Part shown: positions 8,576-45,310 of the stretch, in pieces
Position numbering within the stretch: position 1 is the stretch's first letter
How the letters are laid out: every line of letters begins with the position of its first letter
IMG/VR virus record: IMGVR_UViG_3300037657_000015
Location: 1 to 45,320 of that record
Length of the DNA stretch: 45,320 nucleotides
Reading direction: 5' to 3' (one strand)
Source: a virus
Taxonomy: Duplodnaviria > Caudoviricetes
The notes under the pieces: generated by a model
The model's database searches: none
Told to the model about the DNA's origin: nothing
Seen by the model: only the letters and a program-made list of their open reading frames with translations
Program-made: the position numbers and the translations under genes

Positions 8576-9282
8576 TCTGGCCTGACGATTACATCAACAA
8601 GATTATATGCGGTGATTGCCTGGAAGTGATGAAGGGCATCCCGGACGGCGCGGTTGACTGCGTTATTACCGACCCGCCGTATGGCGTTGGATACCAAGGA
8701 GGCCATTTCCATTCTGGAGATGTCAACATTAAAAGGCACCGCGAAAAACTCGCTAACGATGAAAATTCAGATATATATTATCCATTGTTAGAAGCAATTA
8801 AAAAGGTAACTAAAGGCCCGTGTTATATCTTCTTTTCAGGCACAAAGGCATTTGAGGTTTACGACGCGGCACGGATAAATAAGTTTGACATTCATGCTTT
8901 AATAATTTGGCACAAAACAAATGCAACATACGCGGCGATGAATTCACAATATAAACACAGGCATGAACCGATTTTGTATTGCAAACCCCGAGGCTGGAAC
9001 ACATTATGGTGTGGCCCAACTGATGAATGCACAGTTTGGGACATGAAGCGGAATCCAGAAAATATCCACCACCCAACGCAAAAGCCAGTAGACGTAATAA
9101 AGAGGATGATTCGCAATCACAATATAGACATCATCCTTGACCCGTTCTGCGGATCGGGCACAACCTGCGTAGCCGCCAAGCAGATGGGCCGCAAGTACAT
9201 CGGTATCGAGATCAACCCCGAGTACGCGGCAATCGCACAGCGCCGCGTGGACAACGTAGGCCACCAGTTGGAGGTATTTTAA
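8572..9282 (+). CDS. DNA amino-methyltransferase (N6A/N4C, beta class)
   Basis: GDCL, TDPPY, HPTQKP and LDPFCGSGTT in beta-class order. Confidence 0.93.
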   Translation: MIWPDDYINKIICGDCLEVMKGIPDGAVDCVITDPPYGVGYQGGHFHSGDVNIKRHREKLANDENSDIYYPLLEAIKKVTKGPCYIFFSGTKAFEVYDAARINKFDIHALIIWHKTNATYAAMNSQYKHRHEPILYCKPRGWNTLWCGPTDECTVWDMKRNPENIHHPTQKPVDVIKRMIRNHNIDIILDPFCGSGTTCVAAKQMGRKYIGIEINPEYAAIAQRRVDNVGHQLEVF

Positions 9283-9491: not shown

Positions 9492-9673
9492 CCGCAGTTG
9501 AAGCCATTGAAAAAGCCATCAAGGACGAGCGCGAAAAGATGGAAGCCAACAGAACGTTTTTAAGAAGCTTTGAAGTTGGCGATGCAAGGCTAATTGGGAT
9601 TGCATCTACTCTTTCAAATCACCAGTACGCAATCGGGGTTCTGGAGAAAGTGCTTTCAGAAATCGAAGATTGA
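9488..9673 (+). CDS. Hypothetical protein
   Basis: GGAGG RBS and ATGA overlap. Confidence 0.65.
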   Translation: MTAVEAIEKAIKDEREKMEANRTFLRSFEVGDARLIGIASTLSNHQYAIGVLEKVLSEIED

Positions 9674-9698
9674 AAAACCAAACCGGAGGAATCACACA

Positions 9699-10190
9699 AT
9701 GATTAAAAATCTAATCGTACATCACAGCGTAAGCGCGTGGGGGGGCGGGGAAACGATTAAACATTGGCATTGCGACCCCAAGCCACGCGGGAACGGATGG
9801 AAACATCCTGGATACCACGTGGTCATCACGAACAGGTACAACACGTATAACGCGTACATCAGTCGCATGCGCGGACAAGTCAAAGTTGACCGCATATTGA
9901 GAGAGACAATCCCATCGAACGGGTGCAAGTACGCTAACGACGACAGCCTGCAAGTGTGTTTAATAGGAGACTTTGACAAGCAGGAACCACTTGCAATGCA
10001 ATTTGAAAAGCTCATCGACCTGCTCGTTCACTGGTGTAAGAAATACAAACTTGTCCCCAATGACATCTACGGACACGGGGAAATGCAGCGCAAGATTGGC
10101 AAGGAAAAATACTCGAAAACGTGCCCTGGGAAACTCATGAACATGGACGCCGTGCGCATGGCCGTGGCGCTTAGATTGGCAGGGAAATGA
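9699..10190 (+). CDS. N-acetylmuramoyl-L-alanine amidase (Amidase_2, T7 lysozyme-like endolysin)
   Basis: IVHHS, GWKHPGYH, VCLIGDF, YGH and TCPG give the His/His/Cys Zn ligands. GGAGG RBS before ATG 9699. Confidence 0.9.
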   Translation: MIKNLIVHHSVSAWGGGETIKHWHCDPKPRGNGWKHPGYHVVITNRYNTYNAYISRMRGQVKVDRILRETIPSNGCKYANDDSLQVCLIGDFDKQEPLAMQFEKLIDLLVHWCKKYKLVPNDIYGHGEMQRKIGKEKYSKTCPGKLMNMDAVRMAVALRLAGK

Positions 10191-11563
10191 ACTACTTATC
10201 AATCTGCTCTGGTATCGAAGCCGCAAGCGTGGCGTGGAAACCCATGGGATGGAATGCCGTGGGGTTTTCAGAGATTGAACCGTTTCCTTGTTCGCTTTTG
10301 AATCACCATTATCCAGGCGTGAGAAATTACGGAGACATGACCAACTATAATGAGTGGAGCATTGATGGAGAATCAGTTGACCTTGTTTGCGGAGGAACCC
10401 CATGCCAATCATTCAGCGTCGCCGGACTCCGAAAGGGACTGGATGACCCGCGTGGTAACTTGGCCCTCGTCTTTCTCGGAATTGTTGATCGATTCAAGCC
10501 CCGATGGGTTTTATGGGAAAATGTCCCCGGCGTGCTTTCCGACAAGGGAAACGCTTTCGGGCAATTCGTCACCGGGCTATCAGAACTCGGGTATGGTGTC
10601 TGCTACAGAATTCTCGACGCTCAAAACTTCGGAGTCCCGCAGCGGCGCCGTCGCGTGTGGGTTGTCGGATATTTTGGAAACGGAGCGAACGTATTACAAG
10701 TGCCTGGAATGCGGGGAGGAATTCGAGGACAACTTTGCAACGGGGGCGAACACATTGGCGCCAGCGGAGTGCCCGAGATGCGGGGAGGAAAACCATGTGG
10801 AGTCCAGGACTGGCGACCTTCCGCAGCGGTACTTTTTGAGCGCGAAAGCCTGCGCCGGGATCTTACGCCGCGCCGCAAAACGCGGGAAAGAATTGCCGGC
10901 AGCATTGCTCCAAGCCTTACGGGAAGTGGCCGGGGCGTCGAGCGATGCGGAGAAAGCCGTGGACAAGACCCCGTGATACCAGTCGCACCGCCTCTCCGGA
11001 GCAATCCATATTGCGACAACGCCAGCCATGAGAATGGCCTTGTGTGTAGTGCAGTTACATCCAAATGGGCGAAAGGCACTGGCGGGCCGTCGGGCGATGA
11101 ATGTCAGAATCTTGTAACAGCCCAGCAAGTCCAGTGGTCAAGCGGCGGCGGCCAGTTGATGAATGACACCGCGCAAGCGTTGCGCAGCGGCGCCGAACAC
11201 AATTACCAGTTCGTGGCAGAGCCAGTGGTGACCGGGCCCACCAAAAACGTTTCAGCGTTCGGAGTAAAACGAGCAGGCGGGAACTGCTCTTTTGAAATCA
11301 CCCCAACTCTTGACTCTGGTGGTGGTGGTGGTTTCGGGAATGGCATGAGCGTGTTTGGGCCCACCATGCGTGTGCGCCGATTGACCACGCGCGAATGTGA
11401 ACGGCTCCAGGGATTCCCCGACGATTACACGCTTATCCCGCACAAAGGAAAGCCCGCGTCCGATTCAGCGCGATACAAGGCAATCGGTAACTCCTGGGCT
11501 GTACCGTGCGCAAGGTGGATCGGCGAACGCATACAGATGGTTGAGGATGTTCTTAACAAATGA
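10187..11563 (+). CDS. DNA (cytosine-5) methyltransferase
   Basis: Motifs I (CSGIE), IV (GTPCQSFS), VI (ENV), VIII (PQRRRR), IX (RRLTTRECERLQGFP) and X (IGNS). Confidence 0.95.
   Translation: MNYLSICSGIEAASVAWKPMGWNAVGFSEIEPFPCSLLNHHYPGVRNYGDMTNYNEWSIDGESVDLVCGGTPCQSFSVAGLRKGLDDPRGNLALVFLGIVDRFKPRWVLWENVPGVLSDKGNAFGQFVTGLSELGYGVCYRILDAQNFGVPQRRRRVWVVGYFGNGANVLQVPGMRGGIRGQLCNGGEHIGASGVPEMRGGKPCGVQDWRPSAAVLFERESLRRDLTPRRKTRERIAGSIAPSLTGSGRGVERCGESRGQDPVIPVAPPLRSNPYCDNASHENGLVCSAVTSKWAKGTGGPSGDECQNLVTAQQVQWSSGGGQLMNDTAQALRSGAEHNYQFVAEPVVTGPTKNVSAFGVKRAGGNCSFEITPTLDSGGGGGFGNGMSVFGPTMRVRRLTTRECERLQGFPDDYTLIPHKGKPASDSARYKAIGNSWAVPCARWIGERIQMVEDVLNK
10365..10976 (+). CDS. Overprinted +1-frame ORF inside the C5-MTase; M.EcoHK31I beta-polypeptide-like, with inserted Zn ribbon
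   Basis: Own GGAG RBS and ATG. Contains GKMSP..NSG..LSDILET and RYFLSAKACAGILRRA..LP..L..AL, plus a CLEC/CPRC ribbon. Confidence 0.78.
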   Translation: MENQLTLFAEEPHANHSASPDSERDWMTRVVTWPSSFSELLIDSSPDGFYGKMSPACFPTRETLSGNSSPGYQNSGMVSATEFSTLKTSESRSGAVACGLSDILETERTYYKCLECGEEFEDNFATGANTLAPAECPRCGEENHVESRTGDLPQRYFLSAKACAGILRRAAKRGKELPAALLQALREVAGASSDAEKAVDKTP

Positions 11564-15834: not shown

Positions 15835-15876
15835 AAACTAACATGATTGCATAAAGCATACCAGGAGGTTAGAATT

Positions 15877-16866
15877 ATGATAAAATCTGACAGTCAGCTT
15901 GAATCGATAGGCTTTTATACTCTTTCAGACGCCAGGGCTGCAAAAGCATCACGGACAAGCCCGCTTTCAAGATGCGAATTGATTTTAACGGACAGGTGCA
16001 ATTTCAAGTGCCCATATTGTCGAGGCCTTAGACAAGATTACTCTGGAGATATGCCGGTAGAAGATGCAGTAGAAATTATAAAACTATGGTCTTCAGATTC
16101 ACTTAAAAATATTAGACTGTCTGGAGGTGAACCAACACTTTACAAAGATATATTACGCGTTGTCTCAATATGTAAGGATGAAGGAATAGAGAGAATAGCA
16201 ATGTCAACAAACGGGTCAGCCGAAACTGATTTTTATCTTAATCTTGTGTCAAAAGGGATAAATGATTTTTCAATATCATTAGATGCTTGTTGCCACTCAC
16301 AGGCAAAAACAATGTCTGGAGGAATTGATGTTCTTGATAGGATTTCATCAAACATAAAAGTGCTGTCAAGTATTGTATATGTTTCTGTTGGCGTTGTTAT
16401 AACAGAAGATAACTCGAAAGACGTATGCGAAATAATAAGCTATGCGAATTCACTTGGTGTTTCAGATATAAGAATAATCTCGTCTGCGCAGAACAATGAG
16501 ATGCTGGTCAATGCGGTTAAAATTGAAGGGCGCGTTTTAGAATCAAATCCAATATTGAAATACAGAATAAACAACATAAAACAAGGTAGAAACGTAAGGG
16601 GGATCGCGAATGGTGATAGCAACAGGTGCGGACTCGTTATGGACGATATGGCCGTGTGCGGAAAATGGCATTTCCCGTGCATAATATATATGAGAGAGGG
16701 CGGAAACCAAATAGGCGTTGTTTCAGACAAAATGAGGGATGAAAGATATGAATGGTATTTGTCTCACGATACACACACAGACAAAATTTGCAAGAAAAAC
16801 TGTCTTGACGTTTGCATAGATTATAATAACAAGTTTGCAGCAACAAACCCAAATAGGCACATATAA
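15877..16866 (+). CDS. Radical SAM enzyme with Cys-rich C-terminal (SPASM/twitch-like) region
   Basis: CNFKCPYC, LSGGEP, STNG and SISLD. Further Cys in C-terminal PC and CKKNCLDVC. GGAGG RBS before ATG 15877. Confidence 0.92.
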   Translation: MIKSDSQLESIGFYTLSDARAAKASRTSPLSRCELILTDRCNFKCPYCRGLRQDYSGDMPVEDAVEIIKLWSSDSLKNIRLSGGEPTLYKDILRVVSICKDEGIERIAMSTNGSAETDFYLNLVSKGINDFSISLDACCHSQAKTMSGGIDVLDRISSNIKVLSSIVYVSVGVVITEDNSKDVCEIISYANSLGVSDIRIISSAQNNEMLVNAVKIEGRVLESNPILKYRINNIKQGRNVRGIANGDSNRCGLVMDDMAVCGKWHFPCIIYMREGGNQIGVVSDKMRDERYEWYLSHDTHTDKICKKNCLDVCIDYNNKFAATNPNRHI

Positions 16867-20593: not shown

Positions 20594-20779
20594 ATGCGTA
20601 CACGCATTTATGCAATAAGCAAACGGATTAGATACGCATTGCGAGGACAGTGGCCCAAGATTACAATACAGGGACCAATGATGGTAAGGGTTAAATCTAA
20701 GCGCAGATGCCGCCAGTACAAACCAGAGTACATTACCGGGGAACCGGACAGGACTGAATACTACAAGATCACTTCATAA
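20594..20779 (+). CDS. Small basic hypothetical protein, last gene of the + arm
   Basis: ATG 3 nt after the previous stop. Weak RBS. Confidence 0.5.
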   Translation: MRTRIYAISKRIRYALRGQWPKITIQGPMMVRVKSKRRCRQYKPEYITGEPDRTEYYKITS

Positions 20780-20981
20780 GTCCGCGTTTCTGCGCATCGG
20801 TTCGGCTGATACGAGTTGCCTTTAGTGCGGCTGATTCGCCTTCATTATTGCGTATATCCTTAAACCGGTTAATCTCACGCTGAAATCTAATAATCGCCTG
20901 TACGGCGAATATAGCAATGGTTGTTACAGCAGTAACAACAGTCATTACGATACTCTGCCACATGAGTATTTTCTGTTCCAT
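20769..20981 (-). CDS. Small membrane protein, possible holin/lysis accessory
   Basis: N-terminal TM segment, basic C-terminus, last gene of the late arm, GGAGG RBS. Confidence 0.55.
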   Translation of the reverse strand: MEQKILMWQSIVMTVVTAVTTIAIFAVQAIIRFQREINRFKDIRNNEGESAALKATRISRTDAQKRGLMK

Positions 20982-21526: not shown

Positions 21527-21793
21527 TTATGTTCTGTTTAACAACTCTGTGATAAGTGCAGCGGTTAATGATAGAGATGCTATAAGCAACACGCCTACGA
21601 GCCACGAATAACGAGCATTTAAAGCCTTGTGCGTTGCGTCACAATGCGCTCTGGTAATAGCGTCTGATGCACATTTTTCCTGTACGCGCAAGCGGAATTC
21701 ATGATCGGCCATCACTTCAGTTCCGCGTTTCAATTCGCTGTGTATGGCCTTTACATTCCCTGCGATTTCAAGTAACAGGTCGTGATCATTCAT
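21527..21793 (-). CDS. Coiled-coil plus C-terminal TM protein, holin-like
   Basis: HEFRLRVQE coil followed by WLVGVLLIASLSLTAALI TM. Located at the end of the late operon. Confidence 0.55.
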   Translation of the reverse strand: MNDHDLLLEIAGNVKAIHSELKRGTEVMADHEFRLRVQEKCASDAITRAHCDATHKALNARYSWLVGVLLIASLSLTAALITELLNRT

Positions 21794-21840: not shown

Positions 21841-23373
21841 TTATTCAATCCATCCTCTAAGCACACACGTTGCCGGCCCGCTTCCAGCAGTTGCCGCTAA
21901 TCCAGACATGCGAATATCCGTCTTTGCTGGCAATGACGTCGGAATATCAAGGTTAACAGTAACGGCAGCGTTTGAAACCAACACTTCCGTATATGGGTAG
22001 AACAAATCACGCGTGTTATGTTTTTTTCCTGGTTCAATATTAGCTCTCGTATATATCCGTGCCGTCTGGATCTTTGCGTCATTCGGAGTGGCCCACGATA
22101 CAAATACGGAAGTTACATACAGCGTCTTTCCGGCAGGCACTGTATAAATAATACTCCTTGCGCGCGTAAATCCAGCAAGGATATACCCGTATGTTGTCCC
22201 TGCGCCATCTGCGCGTAATGTAAGATTACCAACCGCCTTAAGTCCAGATCCAACAGCGATAACTCGGAATGAGTTTAAGCGGAAAAAATTTGTGTTCACT
22301 GTGTCAACCGCTGTTAATCCGCTAAGCACTATAATCTCGCAATGTTCAGCATAGTCATCGTCAAGGTAACACGCAAAAACTGCCTGCGCTCCAGTCGTAG
22401 CAGACTTGTCAATTATGTTATATGTCCTTCCGCTACCAGTCCCGTCTTCACTGAACTCACCGGCAACAGCCAATTCAGTTGCGCTCGTTATTGCAGTCAC
22501 ATATCCGAACTCTGGAGTTGTACCGCTTGAATCAAGAATGATTAAATCTCCAACAGCAACTGGTGTACCAGCAGTGAAATCCTTACCAGTGTCAATAAGT
22601 GAAGTTGTTGAACCGCCTGTAGATGTTCCAGAAAATATCGATGTGCCAGCATCATTCGCGCTGCTGCTGACAACTTCCCATTTTCCCTCTGCTGATGGGA
22701 ACGTGTATACGCCAGCAGCAGACCATATATCAGATTCTGTTGTGTTCACAGTTGGGCTATAGCCTATCTTAGTGAATGGTGTATGGCCAGATACGTTCCC
22801 TTCCGCTATGTCCTGCAAGTATGTCATGGAGCTTACTCTGATTTTACCGTCTACAGATTTATTTGATTCCCATGCTGTACCAGTCCATCCCTTTAGTTGC
22901 GCGTCAACAGCACCGTCAACCGTAAGTGAGTTGCCACCGTCCTGCACATTTACCGCCGCAGCACCAGCACCGTTATTTATTGTGACATCACCAATATCAG
23001 TACCAGTAACAAGCTTTGCGTTTATCGCCGCAAGCGTTGTCTGCGTTGCAAAGTCTTTACCTGCAATAGTTGTTAGACTTGCATTCCCGCTTGTTTGTAA
23101 TGCCGCAGTCGCAGCACCTGTTGGCAATGCGCTGCTCTGAACATCAACATCAATGTTATTTGTCTGCGTCCCGCTGCAAGGGTCTGATACGTCTACCGTT
23201 CCAGTTACTGGAGTTGTACCGCCTGATCCTGTTCCAACGCCATACACATATAGCGGATTAGTAGATGTGCCAACATCTACGCCATCGTTATCTTTAAGCT
23301 GAACCCATGTTATTTTTTTGACCATTAAATTATATGGTCTTTCAGCGCCACCGCTGTTCTTAAGAATCGCCAT
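21841..23373 (-). CDS. Putative virion structural (fibre/spike-like) protein
   Basis: G/S/T/A-rich beta character with IAEGNVSG, VVSSSAND and YTVPAGKT motifs. Follows the ejection genes. Confidence 0.65.
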   Translation of the reverse strand: MAILKNSGGAERPYNLMVKKITWVQLKDNDGVDVGTSTNPLYVYGVGTGSGGTTPVTGTVDVSDPCSGTQTNNIDVDVQSSALPTGAATAALQTSGNASLTTIAGKDFATQTTLAAINAKLVTGTDIGDVTINNGAGAAAVNVQDGGNSLTVDGAVDAQLKGWTGTAWESNKSVDGKIRVSSMTYLQDIAEGNVSGHTPFTKIGYSPTVNTTESDIWSAAGVYTFPSAEGKWEVVSSSANDAGTSIFSGTSTGGSTTSLIDTGKDFTAGTPVAVGDLIILDSSGTTPEFGYVTAITSATELAVAGEFSEDGTGSGRTYNIIDKSATTGAQAVFACYLDDDYAEHCEIIVLSGLTAVDTVNTNFFRLNSFRVIAVGSGLKAVGNLTLRADGAGTTYGYILAGFTRARSIIYTVPAGKTLYVTSVFVSWATPNDAKIQTARIYTRANIEPGKKHNTRDLFYPYTEVLVSNAAVTVNLDIPTSLPAKTDIRMSGLAATAGSGPATCVLRGWIE

Positions 23374-30144: not shown

Positions 30145-30480
30145 TTAGTTCACTTCCTTTTCAACCGTTATTTCACCGTTAATGATTTTCTTTAAGAACA
30201 GATATGTTTTCAAAGAATCCTCACCTTTTATGCTTCCTGGTTCAACATTGTTTTTGGACCACCAGAACCCGCATGTCCTGCGAGTCATTTTAACAATAGG
30301 ACATTCACGACATGAAAGATATTTAACATTGTTTAAAACAGTTTCCTTTTTATACTTTGGACATAGGCCACAGCGTTCATCCTTTGTCGCCATCTTTATT
30401 TCAGCCGCATCCTTGTTAAATAAAAAGGTTCGGTAGATATCCTGCCAGTCCTCAAGCTCTTTTTGCAGTTCACTTGTCAT
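30145..30480 (-). CDS. Cys-cluster hypothetical protein
   Basis: CGLC...CRECPI...C. ATGA-coupled within the structural operon. Confidence 0.65.
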   Translation of the reverse strand: MTSELQKELEDWQDIYRTFLFNKDAAEIKMATKDERCGLCPKYKKETVLNNVKYLSCRECPIVKMTRRTCGFWWSKNNVEPGSIKGEDSLKTYLFLKKIINGEITVEKEVN

Positions 30481-31166
30481 ACTGCCTCTACTACCATTGA
30501 TACATTGCTAATAGTTCCTGCTGACCCAACATTCCACGCTGCCCCTGCGTAAAGAATAACGATTGCTGTTTTAGAGAATGGAGTCGTCAATCCGCTTGTG
30601 GTTGTCGCGTCAATCCACATTGTTCTTTCTTGTGTAAGTCCCCCACCATTTATACATGATGATACAACTTCAAATCGAGCATCTCGCGAACCAGAAGAAG
30701 AAAGATCCTCTGCTGCTGCTGCGCCTACCTTCATGCGCAATGGTAGAAGTCCATCATATGCGCCAACACCTGGACCGTCAAACTGCATTGACAGTGTGAC
30801 CTTTAATCCATTTGTTGCTGTGTTTGCCGGAACCGTAACCGAACACGCTGTCCATGAAGCACCGCTTGAAGATGCCGCGCTCGTAGAATCAAAATCATAT
30901 CCTACAAGTTTTGACGCTCCAAGTGTGTTTGAAATTCCAGTACCAACAGCCGTTTCAAGTGTTGAAATATCAGATGTGTTTGTTGCGATATCAGCAGTGT
31001 TCGTTGCAATGTCTGCAACATTCGTAGCAATATCAGCCGTGTTGGTTGCGATGTTGGCGTCAGAGATAACCGATGCCGCCGCGATCTTGGCCAATTCAGC
31101 ATCTAATGCACTGGCATTGTTGTTTGTCGCCGTAGATGAAAATGTTGCGCCCTTAGTGTAAGACAT
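30477..31166 (-). CDS. Tail needle-like trimeric coiled-coil protein with C-terminal beta domain
   Basis: Heptads IATNTAD/IATNVAD/IATNTAD/IATNTSD. Directly follows the nozzle gene, as P22 gp26 follows gp10. Confidence 0.65.
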   Translation of the reverse strand: MSYTKGATFSSTATNNNASALDAELAKIAAASVISDANIATNTADIATNVADIATNTADIATNTSDISTLETAVGTGISNTLGASKLVGYDFDSTSAASSSGASWTACSVTVPANTATNGLKVTLSMQFDGPGVGAYDGLLPLRMKVGAAAAEDLSSSGSRDARFEVVSSCINGGGLTQERTMWIDATTTSGLTTPFSKTAIVILYAGAAWNVGSAGTISNVSMVVEAV

Positions 31167-31177
31167 TTCTTTACTCC

Positions 31178-32986
31178 TTAAGTTGTCTCTACCGAGTAGT
31201 CTATTGTTGCTCCTTCAAATACGCAATCACCAGTCATTGTATTCGTAATAAAGTCGCATCCTATATGCGCTCCAACAACTCCCTGGGCAATCATCTGGCG
31301 CTCAATCCTGTCAGTAGTTGTTGAAGACCATCCACCGTCCCATCCACCGTCCCAAATCAACTCAACTGCATGCGTAAGGGTATGTGTCGATGTGAACCCG
31401 GTTCGTGTGCGAGGGGTTATTGTAACGGTGTCAGAAGCAACGCTCATGGTTGCCTCTGCCGCAAGGTTCCATGCTTTCTTGAATAAATACGGCAATCCCG
31501 CATCATCGAGTCTGCTTTGAAGTTCAGCTACAAATCCTGCCGAATCATCAGTTGAACCTGTTTCCTCTGTGCGGATAAATCCGTATGCATCACCAGAGTA
31601 CCAATTGTTGTTATCGTTTTCATTGTTTGCCACACACATTGCGCTGATCATCTTTTGCGACATGTACGGAGTCCAGGATTCAAATGCAACATGATATTCA
31701 AGCACCAGGTCATTATTGACGCTGTTCTGGTTTGACGGGACAGAGAAATAAATCTTACCGTTCCCACGGTCAACAGCAATGGCATTGGCCATGGTTGATT
31801 CAGTAACATTGTCGAACAGGCTATCTATGTCCAGAGAAATGCGAATCGGATTAAAATCATTCCCCATTTTGTAGATATATCCAAACCGACCAACAAAATA
31901 TAAAAACCCATTGGACACAATCATTGAGCGTGGGGCGATAACGCCATTGTCTTCTATCTGGCGAACCTTTACCCAATTGAGTGAGTCTTCATTTTCGCAT
32001 CCCCAAAACACCCATATAACATTTGACTTTGCAACAACCAGTGCATCTCCGAATGAGGCCATTCCTGTACATACGCCGCCATAGCCCTTATCAATATCTT
32101 CATAGTATGTATCCGGGAAGGCCCATGGCTTATTCAAAATTGACCATGCAACCCTTGAAGTATTCGCTGACTGGTGCGATGTAAAAAGCCTGTTCTTATG
32201 AAGGCACACATATTTTGATCCAACAGGTGCAACGTTATCTGCTGCGCTGAATGAAGCATTGTCCTGTAAATCTGCATCAGCAGTACTATCAGCATACGAG
32301 CTTGTGGCATTTGTTACAGTTGTAAGAAGGTAATAATCAGTCCCGCCATCAGTTGTCCTGTAAATGCGAATGCTCGTTACCTGTGCATCTGTGCTTGCTG
32401 TGTAACCAACAGCCACGCTTGCTTTACTTGTAAATACGCCTGTTGAAGCAACGGCTTCTTTAGCGTCTGATTCATGCAGTGTTGTTGAATTGTAATATGT
32501 ATATTTGTAAGTGTATCCAACGCTTGCTGAGAACGATCCTGCTACTCCAGAAACCGTTATTGTAGGCGCAACAGTTGGCCCGACTATTCCCCAATTTGTT
32601 ACGGAGGTCATATCATACTTAACCATATTTGTTCCATCAGCAATAAAGCAAAGCCTTTGGAAACTTTCAAATGAAAGCGGATTGCCAGTCAATCCAGTTT
32701 TAAGCGTAGTAAGAGATGAACCATTAACCTTTTTTAGATTAGTGGTTTCCCCGGCAAGTACTTGCGTTGTCGTATCTCTTGAAAATTTGTATAGGCTGTG
32801 AATCTTGTTTGTTGCAGACGTGTTAATCTTTAATCTACCGCCACGCTTTTGTAGCTTGGCGATATTGTTCATGGTTAGATTGCTGCCGCCACGGAATTGA
32901 TTTTCCGGTAGCGCAGTAGGAAGCGCCCTATAATTAACGCCTCCGCTGAAATTCCTAAAATGTAAGAACTGGCTTTTTCCGCGCAT
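31178..32986 (-). CDS. Tail nozzle / DNA stabilization protein (P22 gp10- or T7 gp12-like) with FN3-like insert
   Basis: NFSGGVN..LP.NQ...N....LQKRGG N-terminus, propeller-like repeats (HKNRLF, RVAWS) and C-terminal WDGGWDGGW. Confidence 0.8.
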   Translation of the reverse strand: MRGKSQFLHFRNFSGGVNYRALPTALPENQFRGGSNLTMNNIAKLQKRGGRLKINTSATNKIHSLYKFSRDTTTQVLAGETTNLKKVNGSSLTTLKTGLTGNPLSFESFQRLCFIADGTNMVKYDMTSVTNWGIVGPTVAPTITVSGVAGSFSASVGYTYKYTYYNSTTLHESDAKEAVASTGVFTSKASVAVGYTASTDAQVTSIRIYRTTDGGTDYYLLTTVTNATSSYADSTADADLQDNASFSAADNVAPVGSKYVCLHKNRLFTSHQSANTSRVAWSILNKPWAFPDTYYEDIDKGYGGVCTGMASFGDALVVAKSNVIWVFWGCENEDSLNWVKVRQIEDNGVIAPRSMIVSNGFLYFVGRFGYIYKMGNDFNPIRISLDIDSLFDNVTESTMANAIAVDRGNGKIYFSVPSNQNSVNNDLVLEYHVAFESWTPYMSQKMISAMCVANNENDNNNWYSGDAYGFIRTEETGSTDDSAGFVAELQSRLDDAGLPYLFKKAWNLAAEATMSVASDTVTITPRTRTGFTSTHTLTHAVELIWDGGWDGGWSSTTTDRIERQMIAQGVVGAHIGCDFITNTMTGDCVFEGATIDYSVETT

Positions 32987-32988
32987 TG

Positions 32989-34068
32989 TCAGTACCTGTA
33001 TTGAAGGTATACATCTGTTGCATGATCGAACTCAGCCGGCCCTCTATCTTCAACTTCAGCCTTTGCCTGTTCGAAAAGTGAACTCATATCATTTAGATAC
33101 GATCTCGATTCATCAAACAGACGCCGCTTTTTCTTACCCCATGAAACGGCACCGTATATCAACGCCCACTGATAATCAAGAGGGATAATTGGCGACGTAG
33201 CCGTTGGAGTTTCATAAAGCAATGTAGGCAATGCTACATAATATGCCTGCAAAAGATTCCCGGCTGCGCTCGGATACGGATACGTTTCGAGAACATAACC
33301 GCTTTTCGCATACGAACCGAATGCGGTCTTCGTTATCAACGTTGCATCATCCATATTGTCAGCGTATGAACTTGTTGCATTGGCCACGGTTGTTACGAGA
33401 TAATACGAACTACCTGCATCGGCTGTTCTATAAATCCGTATGTAGTCAACATTGGGATCTCCGCTTTCAACATATGCAACAGCAACGCTTAACTTATTCG
33501 TAAAAATCCCGCTTGATACTCCGTTTGGAGCGCCGGATTCCTGCGTCGTTTGGCTATTGTAATATGTGTATTTGTACTTGTACCCAGATACCGCAGAGAA
33601 TGTTCCACCAGTCCCAGAAACGGTTAAGGTAGGCGCGCTTGTTGGGTTATCCAATCCGTGCAAGTCTGAATCGGAATACCTTATGTTGTAATACAATGGT
33701 GTCCCTGGCGTGTTTATCCCGGAAAACCAACCCTCATTAGATGCCTGTACCTTATCCATTTCATGAAGCATTCGCAGAGTTGTTCCGTCAAGCCAGAAAA
33801 CACCACTCTTTGAATCGAGCTTCATAAAATCACTTGGTAAATTATGAATTGGACTATTCGCCACAGATGCAGATGCATTTACATAAGTTGAACCAACAAG
33901 GTAATTTGTCATCTTTACAGTCCAACTCGTATATCTGCAAAATGACATATAAGCTTGATTCAGCCATGCTAAAATGCGCGCATCAACAAAGTACGGAGTT
34001 GTGGCCGCACTTGACGCTGGTTCGTCCAATAGCTCTCGAACTTCTGCAATCAGTTCGGTGGCATTCAT
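32989..34068 (-). CDS. Head-tail adaptor with inserted FN3-like domain
   Basis: MNATELIAEVRELLDE..ILAWLNQAY, LPSDF, GTPLYY, YPYP and IPLDYQWALIYGA adaptor motifs. Confidence 0.8.
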   Translation of the reverse strand: MNATELIAEVRELLDEPASSAATTPYFVDARILAWLNQAYMSFCRYTSWTVKMTNYLVGSTYVNASASVANSPIHNLPSDFMKLDSKSGVFWLDGTTLRMLHEMDKVQASNEGWFSGINTPGTPLYYNIRYSDSDLHGLDNPTSAPTLTVSGTGGTFSAVSGYKYKYTYYNSQTTQESGAPNGVSSGIFTNKLSVAVAYVESGDPNVDYIRIYRTADAGSSYYLVTTVANATSSYADNMDDATLITKTAFGSYAKSGYVLETYPYPSAAGNLLQAYYVALPTLLYETPTATSPIIPLDYQWALIYGAVSWGKKKRRLFDESRSYLNDMSSLFEQAKAEVEDRGPAEFDHATDVYLQYRY

Positions 34069-37336: not shown

Positions 37337-39391
37337 CTATTCCTTCTTGCGGTTGGCTCCTAACTGCGCTACTTTGTTATCAGCTTTCAATGTGGTTATC
37401 ACAGCATTCAACTTGGCTTCTCCTGCCTCGTTTTCTGCTTCATCAGCCTTTCCTTCAAGCTGTTTATTTTCCGATTCAAGCTGCTTAATGTATTTTGTTC
37501 CCTGCTCTATAATCTGTTCGCTTTCCTGGACCTTCTGCTTGAGTTGATTCATCATGCTCATTTCCTGCATGGCTTCTTGGATGTTCGGCCAGTCAAGCGA
37601 CTTTAAAAGCGTCTCCGGTCCAAGCACGCCATCTTTAAACAACTGTATGGCTGTAGCCGCACGAGAAGGTTTGTCTGCCGGAAGCGTCGAATTGCTCTTT
37701 ACATTTACCTTGAAAACAAGATCGATATCCTTTGGGAACCCCCCAATATTAAGAACAGAAGGTTGGCCAGTGTCTGGATTTGAATATGAATATTTTCTGC
37801 TTAGTGAGTTGTGTTGCAGAATGCGAGCTATGCACATTTCTCCGATTTCAGATATGAACCGCTCGAAGTTCCTAATAACCGGCCTCAATCGCGTGAAGTC
37901 TGAATCCTTGAGTGATAACGCAATCCCAACTTTATCAAGCCCTGGAGTGCGCTCACCACGCGACATGTCATGCAATCCGCTTTCCATGTCTATTGTAGAC
38001 CGGAACATTGAAAGCATTTGAAAATAGTCGTTAGGAAGCGGAGGCGGTGTCTCCATTTTAGGAGCTGTCTTTGTGTATGTAATAACTTCCCATGGCTTGT
38101 TTGACAGTTTCTTACCAGATGTTAATGAACCATGTTGAACCATCCATTTTGAATTAGCGCCATTGTAATGGTCAATCATTTGACACATAAGGCGATTCCA
38201 CGCCCTTTGTGACTTGTGATGCGCCTCGTACTCCCCGACGCCCCAGAATTGACCAGGGACCGTATTTGCGCGGAATATAGCGTATGGGAACTTGCCATCC
38301 TTGTTCGGGTTCTTATCGTCAAACAGAACAACATTGTTGCTCCATATGATAAGCCGTCCATTCGGATACTTTTTACGCACAACTGTTTCTGTCTCTACTT
38401 CACCAGTAAGCGGGTCAATTACTGCATCCCCTTGTTCATCAAGCACTGGCTCTTCAACGGATATCGTTTCATTGTCTTTGATGTACATGCGATAAACCAT
38501 CGCACGTTCAAGAGCATATTGGCCTACGCTGCCAGTACGCTTTGTGTCTCTGTATACAGCACCAGTTGAACTAACTGCCCCGTTTCCAAAGGTACTACCG
38601 GTCCCCTCTGCATCATTATTCTCTATTTCTTTGTCATATCTGATTTCACTAAAGTCTTCCTCTGGTGCAACAAACTTTCCCTTTTCTTCAAATTCCTGAT
38701 CAATATTGTCAAGGCGCATTACACTTGCTTCAATGCACCCATCAGCATCTTGAAAACATTCTCCAGAGCGCGGGAATATGTAAAAACAATATGGCGATAT
38801 CCTTTGTCCAGACACATCGCCAAACGGGAAATCCTTTTCACTATCGTAACCTATTTTTATGATACCAATGCCATAGGTGAACGCATCAATAGCAGCGGAT
38901 TCAACTGTTTCCTCAAGGTTCCAATGATACCATCCATAGTCCTCAAGTAGAATCTTTAGCTTTTCAACGTCCTCATAACCTATCTGTATTGTTTCACCGG
39001 ATTTTTCATCAACTGATGCAATTGGCAACTCTTTTGTCGGAGACACATTATACATTGGCCTGTTGTCTGTTACCAACGCTGCCTTGTGTCTCACGTTAGC
39101 AAACAGGATATTCCCTGTATAATCACTCATTTCCTTTGGTTTTGCACGTTCCCATTGGATATTCTCATGAATGAATTCATGTGCCCTGTCCCAAATAGCT
39201 TCCTTCTTCTTGCGCGCTTCCTTACATGCCGAAAGCATCATGTTGAGTTTTACAAGTTGCTTTTCTTCTGCCGGAGTTGGAACATAAACAGGACGAGGAG
39301 CCTCTTCTTCAATTGAAAGAACGGACTTAATCTTAGAGACAGCCTTACCCAAGATAGACTTAGAAGGTTGTTTGAGTTCACCGACTTCCAA
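37337..39391 (-). CDS. Portal protein (P22-like)
   Basis: 684 aa with GIGIIK, ISPYCFY, YPNGR, FPY, FWG.G, SG.HD..RG and STLP motifs and a C-terminal coiled barrel. Confidence 0.88.
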   Translation of the reverse strand: MEVGELKQPSKSILGKAVSKIKSVLSIEEEAPRPVYVPTPAEEKQLVKLNMMLSACKEARKKKEAIWDRAHEFIHENIQWERAKPKEMSDYTGNILFANVRHKAALVTDNRPMYNVSPTKELPIASVDEKSGETIQIGYEDVEKLKILLEDYGWYHWNLEETVESAAIDAFTYGIGIIKIGYDSEKDFPFGDVSGQRISPYCFYIFPRSGECFQDADGCIEASVMRLDNIDQEFEEKGKFVAPEEDFSEIRYDKEIENNDAEGTGSTFGNGAVSSTGAVYRDTKRTGSVGQYALERAMVYRMYIKDNETISVEEPVLDEQGDAVIDPLTGEVETETVVRKKYPNGRLIIWSNNVVLFDDKNPNKDGKFPYAIFRANTVPGQFWGVGEYEAHHKSQRAWNRLMCQMIDHYNGANSKWMVQHGSLTSGKKLSNKPWEVITYTKTAPKMETPPPLPNDYFQMLSMFRSTIDMESGLHDMSRGERTPGLDKVGIALSLKDSDFTRLRPVIRNFERFISEIGEMCIARILQHNSLSRKYSYSNPDTGQPSVLNIGGFPKDIDLVFKVNVKSNSTLPADKPSRAATAIQLFKDGVLGPETLLKSLDWPNIQEAMQEMSMMNQLKQKVQESEQIIEQGTKYIKQLESENKQLEGKADEAENEAGEAKLNAVITTLKADNKVAQLGANRKKE

Positions 39392-39662
39392 TTATTTCAA
39401 ACCCCCTGGCCGCGCATTTGCGCTCCGTATCCTTCACACCAAAACACCATTCTCCAAGTCCGTGATTGAAATAACCTTTTTCACGGTGTCCTGTGTCCGG
39501 ATTGACTCTCCATTGCACATCCTCGTCCCTGCGGTCTTTTGGTACAAGAGATTGCACCCCAATTGTTGGGCATGTTTCTCCGCTGATGCCGGGTATAAAA
39601 TCAGAGTCAGCACATCCGTTAGGGCAGTCCCTGATATATCCATGTTTGCAAAAAATACCCAT
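39378..39662 (-). CDS. Hypothetical Cys-containing protein upstream of the portal
   Basis: CKHG..CP and YFNHGLG motifs. Operon position. Confidence 0.65.
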   Translation of the reverse strand: MGIFCKHGYIRDCPNGCADSDFIPGISGETCPTIGVQSLVPKDRRDEDVQWRVNPDTGHREKGYFNHGLGEWCFGVKDTERKCAARGFEIIGSR

Positions 39663-39673
39663 GTTTCACCCTG

Positions 39674-40921
39674 TTAATCAGTTAGATATGTACAATGAAA
39701 ATATCCAGTCCATGCCGTATCTGCTGGTGCTAATGTTGCAGCTCCACCACCAACAGGAGTCTGCCAAAACCGCATGGCCGATATTGTATAAATTGTCGAT
39801 GTCATTATGTTGTTTGCTGAAAGCGCATAGTCACTTATATACCCAATCGAACAAGCACCAGCAAGCGTACTTGAAGGAGCAACAGGCAATGTAACATATG
39901 ATCCGCCTGTGGGTGTTACAGCACATCCAGTAACAGTAACCATAATTGTTGCGTGTACCACATTCCCAATTACCGTATAGGTACCTGTAGCCGTGGTACC
40001 AGTAGCACAATCACCAGCTGTTACGCCGTCATACGCAGGAGTCCACGTTCCTTCATCATAGAAATCAAGCGTGTCGCTTGCTGTGTCGAATGTTAATCCG
40101 CTGCTGAACGTGCTAAGACCGCCCATTGTTAATGTTCCGCTTGCAGCTATGTTCCCATTAGTTGAAATGCTGCCGGAAGCGAACAGTCCAACGGCAATGG
40201 TGCTCGATGCGATGTTTCCAAGATTCGAATATGAAACATTCGTTCCAAGCGCCAACCCGCCGTATTTGCTCATTACAGCCACTGGCGTATCAACTCCGCT
40301 TATTCCCGTTGACCATTGAGCGTGATTGCCCGCCGCCGCACCATCAGATTTATCAATGGAACTTTTAAACACATAAGAAGTGAATCCGTACTTTAATGCA
40401 TGGGCGTCAATAATGTACTTTGCAGCACTTATACTGTTTGTCTGTACCTGTATCCCGGGTCCATCACCGGTGCCGCTAAACCTTCCAGCAAGTCCAGTTG
40501 ATGTATTGAATGCATCAAGAGCGTAGAACGCTGATGCATTCTCTAAACCCAAAGTAGATGAAGAACCAGCTTGCTTAATGTATGCGGCATTAGCTGATGT
40601 ATTTGCATTAATATCAAGTGCGCGCGCAGTTCCTGCAACACCACCAGAAGGAGATATGTATATTGGTGCAAGACTGGTTAGCTTATCAGGTTGAGTCACA
40701 GTCTCAAGCAGCTTAACAGTCTCTGACGCGTTAAATGTAAGTGGCTGGCCAGCCGCCGTAATCGACAATCCCGCAGCTTCAATGGGCACCGTAGCCGTGG
40801 CCCCACGGCTTGCCACATCAGCAAGCGTGTCACTCGATGCACCGCTGCTACTTCCACTGTCAGCATGCGCTACACAACCACAAAGCATAATCGCAATTGT
40901 AATTAGAAGAAGTTTTTTCAT
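39674..40921 (-). CDS. Tail fibre-like protein with N-terminal signal peptide
   Basis: MKKLLLITIAIMLCGCVAHA|D, then TLADVASRGA and a C-terminal DFYDEGTWTP...GTYTVIGNVV...TLPV fibre-tip domain. Confidence 0.72.
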   Translation of the reverse strand: MKKLLLITIAIMLCGCVAHADSGSSSGASSDTLADVASRGATATVPIEAAGLSITAAGQPLTFNASETVKLLETVTQPDKLTSLAPIYISPSGGVAGTARALDINANTSANAAYIKQAGSSSTLGLENASAFYALDAFNTSTGLAGRFSGTGDGPGIQVQTNSISAAKYIIDAHALKYGFTSYVFKSSIDKSDGAAAGNHAQWSTGISGVDTPVAVMSKYGGLALGTNVSYSNLGNIASSTIAVGLFASGSISTNGNIAASGTLTMGGLSTFSSGLTFDTASDTLDFYDEGTWTPAYDGVTAGDCATGTTATGTYTVIGNVVHATIMVTVTGCAVTPTGGSYVTLPVAPSSTLAGACSIGYISDYALSANNIMTSTIYTISAMRFWQTPVGGGAATLAPADTAWTGYFHCTYLTD

Positions 40922-41568
40922 TAACGTCTCCGTCCTTCCCCAAACACATTCGCAGCAGCACCCGAATCAAAGTTGTACAGGGAAACTTCAGTTGCCCATA
41001 TCTTTTCAAAACAATGGAATCCACCCGCAGATACCGGGAACCCATTCGTGGCGCTTGCCTGTCCATGCGTTGCCGGCGCACGCACAACAGTCACATAATT
41101 CGCACCAGTATTGTAAATGCAAAGAGTTGATACCGGCGCACTAAACGTCATTGTAGCCACGCTCGATGTCGCAGGACTCGTGTATTCATACTCAAGACCG
41201 GTGTCAGATTCAATGTACATGGTCCCACTCGCAAGCGATGTAATCGTCGTAATAGAGGAAATGGTACCAGTAGACACGTTGACCATCAAATTGCCGGAGG
41301 CGTCAATCAAGGCGGTCTCTGACCCATCATTTATGGTCACTGTACCACTCGCAAGGTTCGCAACATACGTAACCGTGGCAATCTCACTCAGAATCAACTT
41401 GCCATCATCGTCCGTAAGCACATTCCGCACTTCATCACTGACATTCGACCCCAACATCGACGTTACCCGGTTCGCATCCCTGTTGGCAATATCATCCGCT
41501 GCCACGGCCCCAATAGATAAAAAGGCCGTGAACGCCATAATAGACACAAATAAAAGGATTTTATTCAT
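40921..41568 (-). CDS. Virion-like beta protein with N-terminal signal peptide
   Basis: MNKILLFVSIMAFTAFLSIGAVA|A, RDANRV motif and a C-terminal jelly-roll-like region. GGAGAAGG RBS before ATG 41568. Confidence 0.7.
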   Translation of the reverse strand: MNKILLFVSIMAFTAFLSIGAVAADDIANRDANRVTSMLGSNVSDEVRNVLTDDDGKLILSEIATVTYVANLASGTVTINDGSETALIDASGNLMVNVSTGTISSITTITSLASGTMYIESDTGLEYEYTSPATSSVATMTFSAPVSTLCIYNTGANYVTVVRAPATHGQASATNGFPVSAGGFHCFEKIWATEVSLYNFDSGAAANVFGEGRRR

Positions 41569-41738
41569 ACCCTTCTCCAATCTGCAAGACTGCATTTTGT
41601 TTTTTCAATGTAATCGTCCGGCCCGTTCTCGTCGTTAAACGATAGATACCCCAAAATCGTAAGACGGCGCACAAATTCCTCGACGCTTATGCCGAGATTC
41701 TCTGCCGCCGTCTTGATCTTGCACTTTGTGTTGGCCAA
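41565..41738 (-). CDS. Small HTH-like protein (57 aa, not in ORF track)
   Basis: TTG start with GAAGG RBS. Sequence begins MANTKCKIKTAAENLGISVEEFVRRLTILGYL. Its stop overlaps the next ATG (ATGA). Confidence 0.6.
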   Translation of the reverse strand: MANTKCKIKTAAENLGISVEEFVRRLTILGYLSFNDENGPDDYIEKTKCSLADWRRV

Positions 41739-41766
41739 GTGTATACCTTCTTATACAGATGATTCC

Positions 41767-41795
41767 ATCGTATATTATTTTATACACTCTGTCAA
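41767..41795 (-). promoter_or_regulatory. Sigma70-type late promoter with operator in the spacer
   Basis: Minus-strand TTGACA (41795-41790), 17-nt spacer, TACGAT (41772-41767). Confidence 0.65.
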
Positions 41796-41813: not shown

Positions 41814-43364
41814 TTAGTGGATAGTCGATCCTGTCGGGTTTTCGTACCAGTCCGCTTTGCCATCCTCACCATTTCTATTCTTAAGTGAATCAAAATATTT
41901 GCCTAATTCGTTTGATTCTTCACCTTTTTCCTGTTTATTCGGGACACACCACATCTTTACTTGATATGCCGCAGCATCCGCGACGTCCGGGTGCGATCCT
42001 TCCCCTAACCACAACAGTTCTTCCTCCAACGGGTCACACGCCCCACGCCTATGCCAAATGTTGCCACGCTGATACCTCGGCTGCAAACCCCGAATCCTGT
42101 CAATCTTGCTCTGCTGCTTCGGTTTAAGCTCCTCCAACGGGAAAAATACCTGCGTCTGCTGCATCCTCCTGTCAAATTCATCCACAAGCATCTCCTGGAA
42201 CCCTATAGCTTCAACCCCAACATCGACATAATGAACATTCGGCATCTCACTGTATTTAGAAACTAACTCAAAAACCCTGTCCACCGTGTCCTTAGGTGAA
42301 AATTGACCCCTCAGCACACAATCAAACAGCACTTCACCTCTCTGATTCACTAACCCGACAACTATCCCAGTATTGTGCCGGCCCTTTAGTTTCGATATCG
42401 CCGGGTCAACCGTTATGTAACAGTTGTACACGTCCTGGCTCGATAACCTGTCATAATGACTAAACCATTCTTCCTTGAAATCTTCCTTGTCACTGTCCCT
42501 CGGCTCATTCATGTACTGACACGAAAACATATACCCGCCCATCTCTCGCCTAAGAGACTCGATATAGTCAAGCTTGAACCGCTCCGGATATATAATCCTG
42601 TCATCCTCAATAACTTTCCGTACAACCTTCAACTGGAACTCCTGTGAAAGGTTCTTCAATATGTATCCGTATAAATCCTTCTTGTGCCAACGTGTCCCAA
42701 TAACCACCATCCGCCCATTCGGGTCAAGCTGCGGCAATGCCTGCTTGTAAAAGTTAATAACCTTCTGTATCTGCTCCGGCGTACTGATATTCGACAAGTT
42801 AACCAAATCATCAAATATCATCAGGTCATAATGATACCCTGTCTTCAACCCTCCAATCCCGCACGTGTCTACCGTAGGCTCTTTAATACTCGGATTTCGA
42901 CGCCGTGAAACCATTATCTCAGAATCAGTCCACTTCGTCCCAACCATGTCTCCATATATCTCTGTTATGGATGGATGAATTAAGAAGTTCTTAACTGTTC
43001 TTAGAAAGGCTTGGGCCTTCTCAGCAGTCTCCGATCCTATCAAAATCCGAGTATCAAAGTTCCTAAGGATCTCCTGCACCACAAACGTTGAATTGCAAAA
43101 CGTACTCTTAAGATGATCCCTCGGCACCAATATTAATGCCTTCTTCCAATCAGGCATCATCATCATTTCACTTAATTCACTGTGTATCTCACCTAACCAA
43201 TTATTCTCAAGCACCTCTCTCCCTAAATAAAATAAATCACTCTCTATCATCCCCTTCGTGGCCCGCACGTCCTTCGACTCAAATCCCCACGCTATCTCAG
43301 CACCACTTATAAACCTGTCAAGTAAACTAAGATATAACGACGGCTTCCGCTCCACTTCTACCAT
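41814..43364 (-). CDS. terL: Terminase large subunit
   Basis: Walker A PRDHLKST, Walker B LMIFDD, GTRWH, QYMNEP and nuclease motifs TVDPA and HPDVADA. Confidence 0.95.
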   Translation of the reverse strand: MVEVERKPSLYLSLLDRFISGAEIAWGFESKDVRATKGMIESDLFYLGREVLENNWLGEIHSELSEMMMMPDWKKALILVPRDHLKSTFCNSTFVVQEILRNFDTRILIGSETAEKAQAFLRTVKNFLIHPSITEIYGDMVGTKWTDSEIMVSRRRNPSIKEPTVDTCGIGGLKTGYHYDLMIFDDLVNLSNISTPEQIQKVINFYKQALPQLDPNGRMVVIGTRWHKKDLYGYILKNLSQEFQLKVVRKVIEDDRIIYPERFKLDYIESLRREMGGYMFSCQYMNEPRDSDKEDFKEEWFSHYDRLSSQDVYNCYITVDPAISKLKGRHNTGIVVGLVNQRGEVLFDCVLRGQFSPKDTVDRVFELVSKYSEMPNVHYVDVGVEAIGFQEMLVDEFDRRMQQTQVFFPLEELKPKQQSKIDRIRGLQPRYQRGNIWHRRGACDPLEEELLWLGEGSHPDVADAAAYQVKMWCVPNKQEKGEESNELGKYFDSLKNRNGEDGKADWYENPTGSTIH

Positions 43365-44075: not shown

Positions 44076-44105
44076 ATAATAGTCTATTTTTTTATACACT
44101 GTCAA
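44076..44105 (-). promoter_or_regulatory. Sigma70-type promoter for the packaging operon
   Basis: Minus-strand TTGACA (44105-44100), 18-nt spacer, TATTAT (44081-44076). Confidence 0.6.
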
Positions 44106-44107
44106 GC

Positions 44108-44127
44108 GTGTATATTATTTTATACAC
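44108..44127. promoter_or_regulatory. Palindromic operator GTGTATA-N6-TATACAC (perfect copy)
   Basis: Near-copies at 41739-41758, 41768-41787, 44331-44350 and 44794-44813; half-match at 44080-44099. Confidence 0.7.
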
Positions 44128-44987
44128 ATATATAGGCGTTTGGACTATATATAGGCGTTTTGGCTCAAACATACCGCGCTCCGCGAGTGTAGTAGTTTAT
44201 ATAGTCGAGGGGGTACCGGGGGGTACATGCCGGTCGAGCTTGGATTTTTTTCCCGCACGTGTGTGGACAAACAGCAACGCGCGCGAACGCATGCGTCAAC
44301 GATTGTCAACCCATACACACCAGCACCCGCGTGTATAAAAAAATATACATGTAGCATTCAGGATACACGTGATATCATGGGTGTGTGTAAGAGGTTACAC
44401 ACGTGCGCGTGTGGTACGTGCCGAACGCCTGCGGACCCTGCGCATAGATTAAATGTATTTATTTAATATGTGTGTGTGTGCGCGCACGCGCGTGGTATGT
44501 ACTAATTATCATCATCATCCAGGTCAAGCGCTGCGTCCTCGCACGTATACGGCTCCTCACAACGCTTTACACGCATCCGCGCGTACTCCATCGCCCCGCG
44601 TATACTCATTCGATCTCCAGTGTCCGGCGCAGGAGTAGTCAAACGGCTGGCGGCCCCCTGTTCCCGTTGTTGGATAGCATGGGCAATCAATCGGCCAGTG
44701 ATGTTAATTGAGTATGAGATAATGATTGCTGATGGAATGAGTAAGATGTCCATAATTATATTATATATTAATAAGGGTGAATGTAAAGTGATAACGTATA
44801 AAAAAGCATACACTGTACGTTTTTCGATGTATGAAAGAATATAATGCGCGAGAAGGGCGAATAGGTGGCAAATACGTAAGAATCGTGATATTTCGTGATA
44901 ATGGCCTACGGTATTAGTTATGTGCTAAAAGTGCGCCTATGGGCCTGTTAGGTGGCATCTTTTTGTTTCCTTTGTTCTATTTTATTA

Positions 44988-45310
44988 GGTGTCACAGAAT
45001 GTCATTTATGTATTTAGTATATATATGTAATATATATATATTAAAATAATATACTTTGGTGTCACACATTGGCACGGTGTCATTTATTGTCATGGTGTCA
45101 CGCTGTGTCATTGTACTTACCTCTATTTCCATACTATTTGTTCTATGCTAATTATACTATTTTGATATTCTACGGGTATACACCTTGCGCGCTAGTGACA
45201 TTGGTGACACTGGTCCGCATAGTAATATGTGGTGACATAACGTGGCATGCGTGACATATTTCGACATGTGATACAATTAACAAAATTAGTTGTTGACATA
45301 TTGCGACACC
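44988..45310. repeat. Inverted array of phased TGTCA/TGACA boxes (iteron/operator-like)
   Basis: GGTGTCAY-N4-TG(T/G)CAY at 44988, 45058, 45076 and 45094. Looser reverse-orientation pairs at 45195-45310 (= 2-117). Confidence 0.75.

Follow-up and report, generated by a model that had tools for sequence, protein, structure and literature searches.

Paired fibre-like proteins with predicted signal peptides in a podophage late operon, and their possible docking onto particles at lysis

In the textbook view, the particles of tailed phages are built wholly in the cytoplasm, and their tailspike and fibre proteins are cytoplasmic, leaderless and equipped with an N-terminal particle anchor. Phage products that leave the cytoplasm include morons and exclusion lipoproteins (for example, Bor and T5 Llp). 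Lambda Lom is likewise described as an exported moron-type protein (PMC12309495). Lom, Bor and Llp resemble the two proteins reported here (ORF-A and ORF-B) in being phage-encoded, exported (by prediction for ours) and encoded within or near the late region, but they are not fibres, whereas the genes of ORF-A and ORF-B are coupled translationally into the head block, sit in a conserved slot and have native GC. On cells, the Bdellovibrio MAT fibres consist, according to PMC10769870, of a signal peptide followed by a phage-fibre-like trimer with a variable adhesin head; they differ from our proteins in being cellular and surface-displayed, with a conserved beta domain of ~130 aa behind the signal and, in many of them, an S74 chaperone. 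Pfam gave no match to the ~130-aa domain or to S74 in ORF-A or ORF-B.

Cultured phages offer one analogue, phi18:3, from a group whose proteomics (that is, of the Cellulophaga phages) is said to come from Holmfeldt 2013. In the record of Cellulophaga phage phi18:3 (KC821620; a cultured podovirus of the Pachyviridae), gp085-gp087 are annotated 'structural protein, MS/MS' and leaders are not mentioned, yet among the 12 proteins so annotated in two stretches exactly these three begin with the signal pattern. Leader-bearing proteins are accordingly on record in preparations of a cultured podophage, where detection by MS/MS can reflect co-purification. Like ORF-A and ORF-B, gp085-gp087 are consecutive structural-annotated proteins that start with signal-peptide patterns; unlike them, they come from a phage of a Bacteroidota host, are larger, have few cysteines and give no sequence match. 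In searches of the open-access literature we found no description of signal-bearing virion fibres of tailed phages; the passages of PMC3426561 and PMC8143477 have no bearing on them, and that of PMC12309495 only through Lom.

The window analysed here (the whole stretch of DNA, 45,320 nucleotides) is a complete 45.3-kb genome of a P22/SU10-type podophage with a 127-nt terminal repeat. Its podovirus late block lies on the minus strand, as do all genes and promoters of the block given below. It includes the terminase large subunit gene terL (41814..43364; PHROG match), a P22-like portal gene (37337..39391; Pfam and PHROG matches), and genes for a scaffold, a major capsid protein (phrog_9953), an SU10-type adaptor and a head-closure/nozzle protein; judged by position and composition, three further genes are likely to encode ejection proteins, and two leaderless genes (30477-31166 and 21841-23373) are labelled fibre-like. 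Between terL and portal lie, in this order, a 57-aa ORF (41565..41738), ORF-A (215 aa; 40921..41568), ORF-B (415 aa; 39674..40921) and a Cys-rich 94-aa ORF (39378..39662), neighbours overlapping or at most 11 nt apart: the 57-aa ORF, which has a TTG start, overlaps the start of ORF-A by 4 nt, the ORF-A stop overlaps the ORF-B start (TAATG), and the 94-aa ORF begins 11 nt past ORF-B and overlaps the portal start.

Scans with the terminase yielded one close relative, L001, and distant matches. The gene order in L001 (terL, an extra 157-aa ORF, the 57-aa ORF, A, B, the 94-aa ORF, portal) places the pair in the same slot and order, which answers in the affirmative a question that the first-pass annotation had raised about related phages. 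The 94-aa ORF is 72% identical there and the 57-aa ORF 46-50%, while ORF-A and ORF-B have the lowest identities of 11 late genes (32% and 35%, against 41-72% for the rest). As the GC content of the cassette (0.47-0.49) is the same as that of its neighbours and none of the late genes compared diverges more than A and B, receptor-binding parts fit better than a moron; a stand-alone moron was rejected, given that a promoter is present with no convincing terminator, GC is native and the slot is conserved in the one relative. A homologue of A (P0023) and one of B (P0002) both lie on one 33,526-nt contig and are probably a third copy of the pair. Further afield, Pfam and PHROG held no family above cut-off for either protein, tblastn gave no match in 50,697 annotated phage records, and neither metagenome scans with portal and ORF-B alignments nor genome scans with ORF-B and RDANRV alignments confirmed a locus. 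A distant A homologue lies on a 43.6-kb contig labelled Aestuariibacter sp., too weak a likeness for host assignment.

Signal peptides were called with our own n/h/c-region heuristic (not SignalP), which scores an N-terminus for basic residues at its start, a hydrophobic core of 10 uncharged residues and a small-x-small site. It picked 2 of the 45 ORFs in the window, exactly ORF-A and ORF-B, and so upheld the first-pass claim of two adjacent Sec-type signals, both ORFs and their N-termini lying where that annotation had placed them on the minus strand; shuffled copies passed at rates of 1.2% and 1.35% (2000 copies of each ORF). Both leaders have the basic n-region, hydrophobic h-region and A-x-A site of the Sec/signal peptidase I pattern. 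The predicted signal peptide of ORF-A, supported by the heuristic and a motif test, spans residues 1-23 (AVA|ADD; 41500..41568), and that of ORF-B residues 1-20 (AHA|DS; 40862..40921), with lipoprotein cleavage before Cys16 as the alternative. ORF-A starts at ATG 41568, with GGAG 7-8 nt upstream, in favour of which a longer start at ATG 41595 was rejected.

Homologues keep these leaders, as had been expected. All four full-length ORF-B homologues (three database proteins, 35-45% identical, and one in L001) retain theirs, and A18-x-A20|D21-S22 is invariant in the five family members. A profile search with ORF-A gave 26 proteins among 1.84 billion, a denominator that retains two repeat proteins lacking the family motif (P0034 and P0038); 19 of the 26, query included, are signal-positive, a share biased upward because the profile contained the leader. 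Among the matches of DNA scans with the RDANRV motif alone there were only leaderless forms. The outcomes named beforehand as counting against the idea (no predicted cleavable signal, starts downstream of the hydrophobic segments, leaderless homologues, unrelated domains) did not occur. The lipobox noted earlier in ORF-B is ambiguous: Cys16 fits a loose pattern (that of PROSITE) in 4 of the 5 proteins of its family, a pattern that only 1 of 20 leaders in the A family shows, but the strict pattern is present in 0 of 5, and P0004 is without Cys16 while keeping A-x-A. Taken together, export of both proteins is well supported as a prediction from sequence.

In its model, ORF-A consists of a leader helix, a beta-hairpin module (about residues 28-60), a thin, short beta shaft and a confident single jelly roll (residues 119-215; 40924..41214), which agrees with the RDANRV motif, two cysteines and beta domain reported at first pass. 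The closest structures to the jelly roll are the STIV turret A223 and PirA, tied at Z 9.6 each, with cupins close behind, followed by Ena pilins, the HFTV1 turret (7.9) and PM2 P1 (7.6); 93 viral models, nearly all uncharacterised, match at E up to 0.001. As modelled, the jelly roll is a generic fold. ORF-A thus has the same single jelly roll as the vertex turrets and spikes of STIV (A223), HFTV1 and PM2 (P1), and is likely to be an outer virion part, and it differs from them in its leader, its RDANRV module and its predicted trimer. A trimer had been suggested at the outset, and three copies of mature ORF-A indeed gave a complex score of 0.63 against 0.00 for the best control; 20 of 30 solved pairs pass the mark used, as does 1 of 23 single chains, figures that apply only roughly here. 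The copies touch one another in module, shaft and head, contact agreement between runs was at least 92% and pLDDT at least 79, so that a homotrimer is supported for the mature protein as modelled. In prediction, ORF-A is therefore an elongated homo-oligomer with a small distal head, as head fibres and vertex spikes are, and it is likely to be one or the other.

The RDANRV module (about residues 24-60; 41389..41499) is a candidate particle anchor. Each of the 15 listed RDANRV proteins that bear a signal has the motif about six residues past the hydrophobic leader (for example, A|ADDIAN-RD and A|VDEVAE-RD), and in the leaderless proteins P0035 and P0040 it stands six residues after Met (M-VDQIAK-ED and M-VDEVAS-RD); the distance from Met is four residues in further leaderless proteins, namely P0012 and five encoded on four phage contigs. 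Given this shared register, the predicted cleavage would recreate an N-terminus that is native to the leaderless forms, which lends export and cleavage indirect support. Those leaderless proteins are encoded in late gene blocks in all four distinct phage contigs found, between the capsid and adaptor genes in three and just before terL in one, and the capsid of all four belongs to the major capsid family of the window (E 1e-23 to 1e-34). One leaderless module heads a collagen-like fibre, and P0012 joins an RDNNHV start and an ORF-B-type head domain in one chain, the N-terminal match being made by eye (hhalign E 0.23). Judged by this context, RDANRV would serve as a particle anchor in phages with this type of capsid, attaching either to the capsid itself or to one of its accessory proteins. 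Comparison of ORF-A with the 510-aa fibre-like protein gave no significant match.

Two variations on the module were observed. Five A-family proteins (P0024-P0027 and P0029) have a short two-cysteine module directly after the leader in place of RDANRV. Four tiny proteins (P0036, P0042, L066:7712-7993 and L071:7720-7998) consist of the RDANRV module alone, as one copy behind a leader or as two copies without one; such proteins often stand just before a longer RDANRV fibre.

ORF-B continues after its leader with a G/S linker and an S/T/G-rich fibre shaft, whose motif is also found inside leaderless fibres, and ends in a beta-barrel fibre head (residues 287-415; 39677..40063). This 130-residue end is a member of a large, unnamed family of head domains with a YxEGTWTP motif, C-terminal in all 62 distinct proteins that we gathered. 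The full-length AlphaFold model is poor (mean pLDDT 39, with residues 1-287 below 50) and only the head is usable; it matches the C-domain of the Dettilon tailspike gp208 (6F7K) with Z 11.3, rmsd 3.2 and 118 aligned residues. The next matches, at Z 6-7.7, are to the heads of reovirus attachment proteins, AP22 gp53, PSA gp15 and pyocin fibres, and lactococcal RBP heads are matched as well. Searched by sequence against solved structures, ORF-B gave no match (best E 0.64). The fibre-tip domain with four cysteines was thus correctly described at first pass, and the structure comparison suggested there identifies the mature parts as phage fibre modules. ORF-B is likely to be a receptor-binding fibre; from its structural relatives it would be trimeric, and disulfides are predicted in its four-Cys head.

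ORF-B shares its head fold with Dettilon gp208, AP22 gp53, PSA gp15 and lactococcal RBP, and its head family also sits on T7 gp17-type and P22 gp9-type fibres (among 20 N-termini scanned, three have the T7 gp17 N-terminal domain and one the P22 head-binding domain). Where those tailspike and fibre proteins have an N-terminal particle anchor, ORF-B begins with a leader and a G/S linker, and neither Pfam, PHROG nor the model (below pLDDT 50 over residues 1-287) gave a recognisable anchor domain. A leader is present in 7 of the 62 YxEGTWTP proteins (five ORF-B family members, P0005 and a 770-aa fibre of L038) and absent in 55. The 55 include L042: the heuristic called it signal-positive, but the call was discounted on inspection by eye because of a Ser-rich start, which we take to resemble a common leaderless fibre N-terminus. 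The heads of the seven have 4, 4, 4, 4, 4, 3 and 1 cysteines, against at least three in 3 of the 55 leaderless proteins, a trend that rests on few events because five of the seven are one clade. A quick tree of the 62 head domains needs three changes of the signal label, of which the starred branches force only one. The signal-bearing fibre of L038 (L038:4063-6375) has the same head domain and follows directly on baseplate-like genes, that is, in a tail-fibre slot; L038 is a phage unrelated to the window phage, with an integrase-like gene.

Upstream of the 57-aa ORF, a putative sigma70-type promoter (TTGACA-17-TACGAT, 10/12; 41767..41795) is present as first reported, and L001 has TTGACA at the corresponding position, in a region where promoter-like sites occur at chance level (4 found, 4.5 expected). 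The two operators proposed earlier also hold up: an operator-like 18-bp near-palindrome overlaps the promoter spacer (41769..41786) and an 18-bp palindrome, TGTATA-N6-TATACA, surrounds the ribosome-binding site of the 57-aa ORF (41740..41757), neither having a strand. TGTRTA-N6-TAYACR occurs at 5 sites in the window and at none in 100 shuffles, the independent part being the three further sites near 44.1-44.4 kb, as the pattern was drawn from the cassette sites and the relative. L001 has two boxes in the same gap (7571-7588 and 7593-7610), one with a single mismatch, a count reached by 3 of 100 shuffles. Of the three further boxes in the window, one (44109-44126) stands beside a sister promoter, TTGACA-18-TATTAT, upstream of terS/terL (44076..44126 with its box), and the others lie at 44332-44349 and 44384-44401. 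In the stretches of the relative that were scanned, no box was found at its terS promoter, so that control shared with terS/terL is limited to the window phage.

These observations alter the picture of a cassette with its own promoter and regulator. Before portal no convincing terminator was found, only one weak site within ORF-B, and the promoter is therefore most likely the head of a structural operon, which likely runs from the 57-aa ORF through A, B and the 94-aa ORF to portal, scaffold and capsid, and ORF-A and ORF-B would then be made together with the head proteins. A promoter private to the cassette was rejected in view of the missing terminator and the abutting or overlapping genes. 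A private regulator fares no better, since the operator recurs at the terS/terL promoter. The 57-aa ORF, conserved as a gene, is a candidate regulator, but the helix-turn-helix attributed to it is weak, with Pfam matches below cut-off.

The first-pass annotation had proposed exported receptor-binding-like proteins, either docking onto particles or acting as decoys. Export stands as a prediction; for the fate of the proteins, we give docking at lysis about an even chance. Under this model, fibre-type ORF-A and ORF-B, encoded at the front of the structural gene block, would be exported by the host Sec system, cleaved after A23 and A20, respectively, and folded outside the cytoplasm, likely as trimers with disulfides. 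Lysis would mix the compartments, and the mature fibres would likely dock onto finished particles: ORF-A through RDANRV, as a head fibre or vertex spike that joins the particle late, and ORF-B, which has no recognisable anchor, by riding on ORF-A or at another particle site, where it would supply the variable receptor-binding head. Export would bring disulfide-stabilised folding and would hold sticky adhesins apart from assembling heads. The evidence for ORF-A leans to docking; for ORF-B, a lipid-anchored or released form may apply instead. The broader proposal, held tentatively and at a little under even chance, is of two-compartment assembly in tailed phages of this capsid family, in which heads and tails are cytoplasmic and exported, disulfide-folded A and B are snapped on at lysis by means of RDANRV; the module would then be an uncatalogued capsid anchor, found across the family both behind a signal peptide and without one.

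That the two proteins are exported and never join the particle is a possibility that we consider rather unlikely. ORF-B might be lipid-anchored through Cys16 or released, with ORF-A as its partner, and might block the receptor, mop up competing phages or come free at lysis to act as an adhesin or decoy. Such a role would be in keeping with the loose lipobox that 4 of 5 ORF-B proteins have ahead of the G/S linker, the lack of an anchor domain in ORF-B, the operator-controlled promoter directly upstream and the display of signal-bearing phage-like fibres on Bdellovibrio cells (PMC10769870). The genome also has its two separate leaderless fibre-like genes, so that the phage may not need ORF-A or ORF-B on the particle. 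Against this stand the A-x-A|DS invariant in 5 of 5 proteins, P0004 without the Cys, and the exact N-terminus of leaderless late-operon fibres in ORF-A; the stand-alone moron form of the idea also has to contend with genes that are translationally coupled to the portal block without a terminator of their own, have native GC and keep a conserved slot.

An improbable alternative is that cleavage is slow or absent and the leaders act as membrane anchors, so that the proteins would tether assembling heads to the inner membrane or be picked up with membrane at lysis. Both N-termini are hydrophobic enough to span a membrane and the genes adjoin those of terminase and portal, but the cleavage motifs are conserved and the register matches that of the leaderless forms. 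By the established rule of topology, moreover, a basic n-region predicts the part that follows on the outer face of the membrane, and the fibres would then point away from the cytoplasmic heads. That the signals are look-alikes or the starts wrong, and the proteins ordinary cytoplasmic fibres, is hardly credible, for although the calls come from a heuristic and not SignalP, the starts are fixed by ribosome-binding sites and stop/start overlaps, the leaders persist at 32-45% overall identity and the chance rate is 1.2-1.35% per protein.

We therefore return to docking at lysis as the preferred reading, under which ORF-A and ORF-B are a variant of phage fibres with an apparently undescribed maturation route. 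If particle parts do mature across a membrane, assembly would gain an extra step at lysis, the disulfide and other envelope machinery of the host would become usable for the host-recognition proteins of phages, and signal-bearing genes of late operons are being mis-filed as morons. RDANRV offers a clean test case: among phages that share a capsid family, some have the module behind Met and others have it behind a leader predicted to be cleaved.

Further features of the genome touch on adsorption, lysis and control. An o-spanin-like lipoprotein, which would point to a periplasm in the host, was found neither in the window phage nor in the relative; an amidase gene (9594-10190) belongs to the early arm, at a distance from two small single-span membrane ORFs (20772-20981 and 21530-21793) with which the late block ends. 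The last late gene (21841-23373) and its counterpart in the relative (G001:C1 30033-31052) have only their N-terminal ~115 residues in common (65%), and their C-termini differ, that is, a fibre or spike head has been swapped. The adaptor and nozzle proteins (32989-34068 and 31178-32986) each contain a similar inserted segment with a YKYTYYNS.T..ES motif, both match phrog_752 and the segment is kept in the relative; these segments are candidates for neck domains with a role in docking or adhesion. The early arm also encodes a Radical-SAM-like protein with CxxxCxxC (15847-16866) and two DNA methyltransferase-like proteins (8551-9282 and 10187-11563). Finally, GTGACA/TGTCAC boxes, 33 of them window-wide, cluster around the terminal repeat, with seven at 44990-45251, four of which are repeated at 2-58, and the cluster (44990-45251 and 1-60) is possibly a second operator set or an origin.
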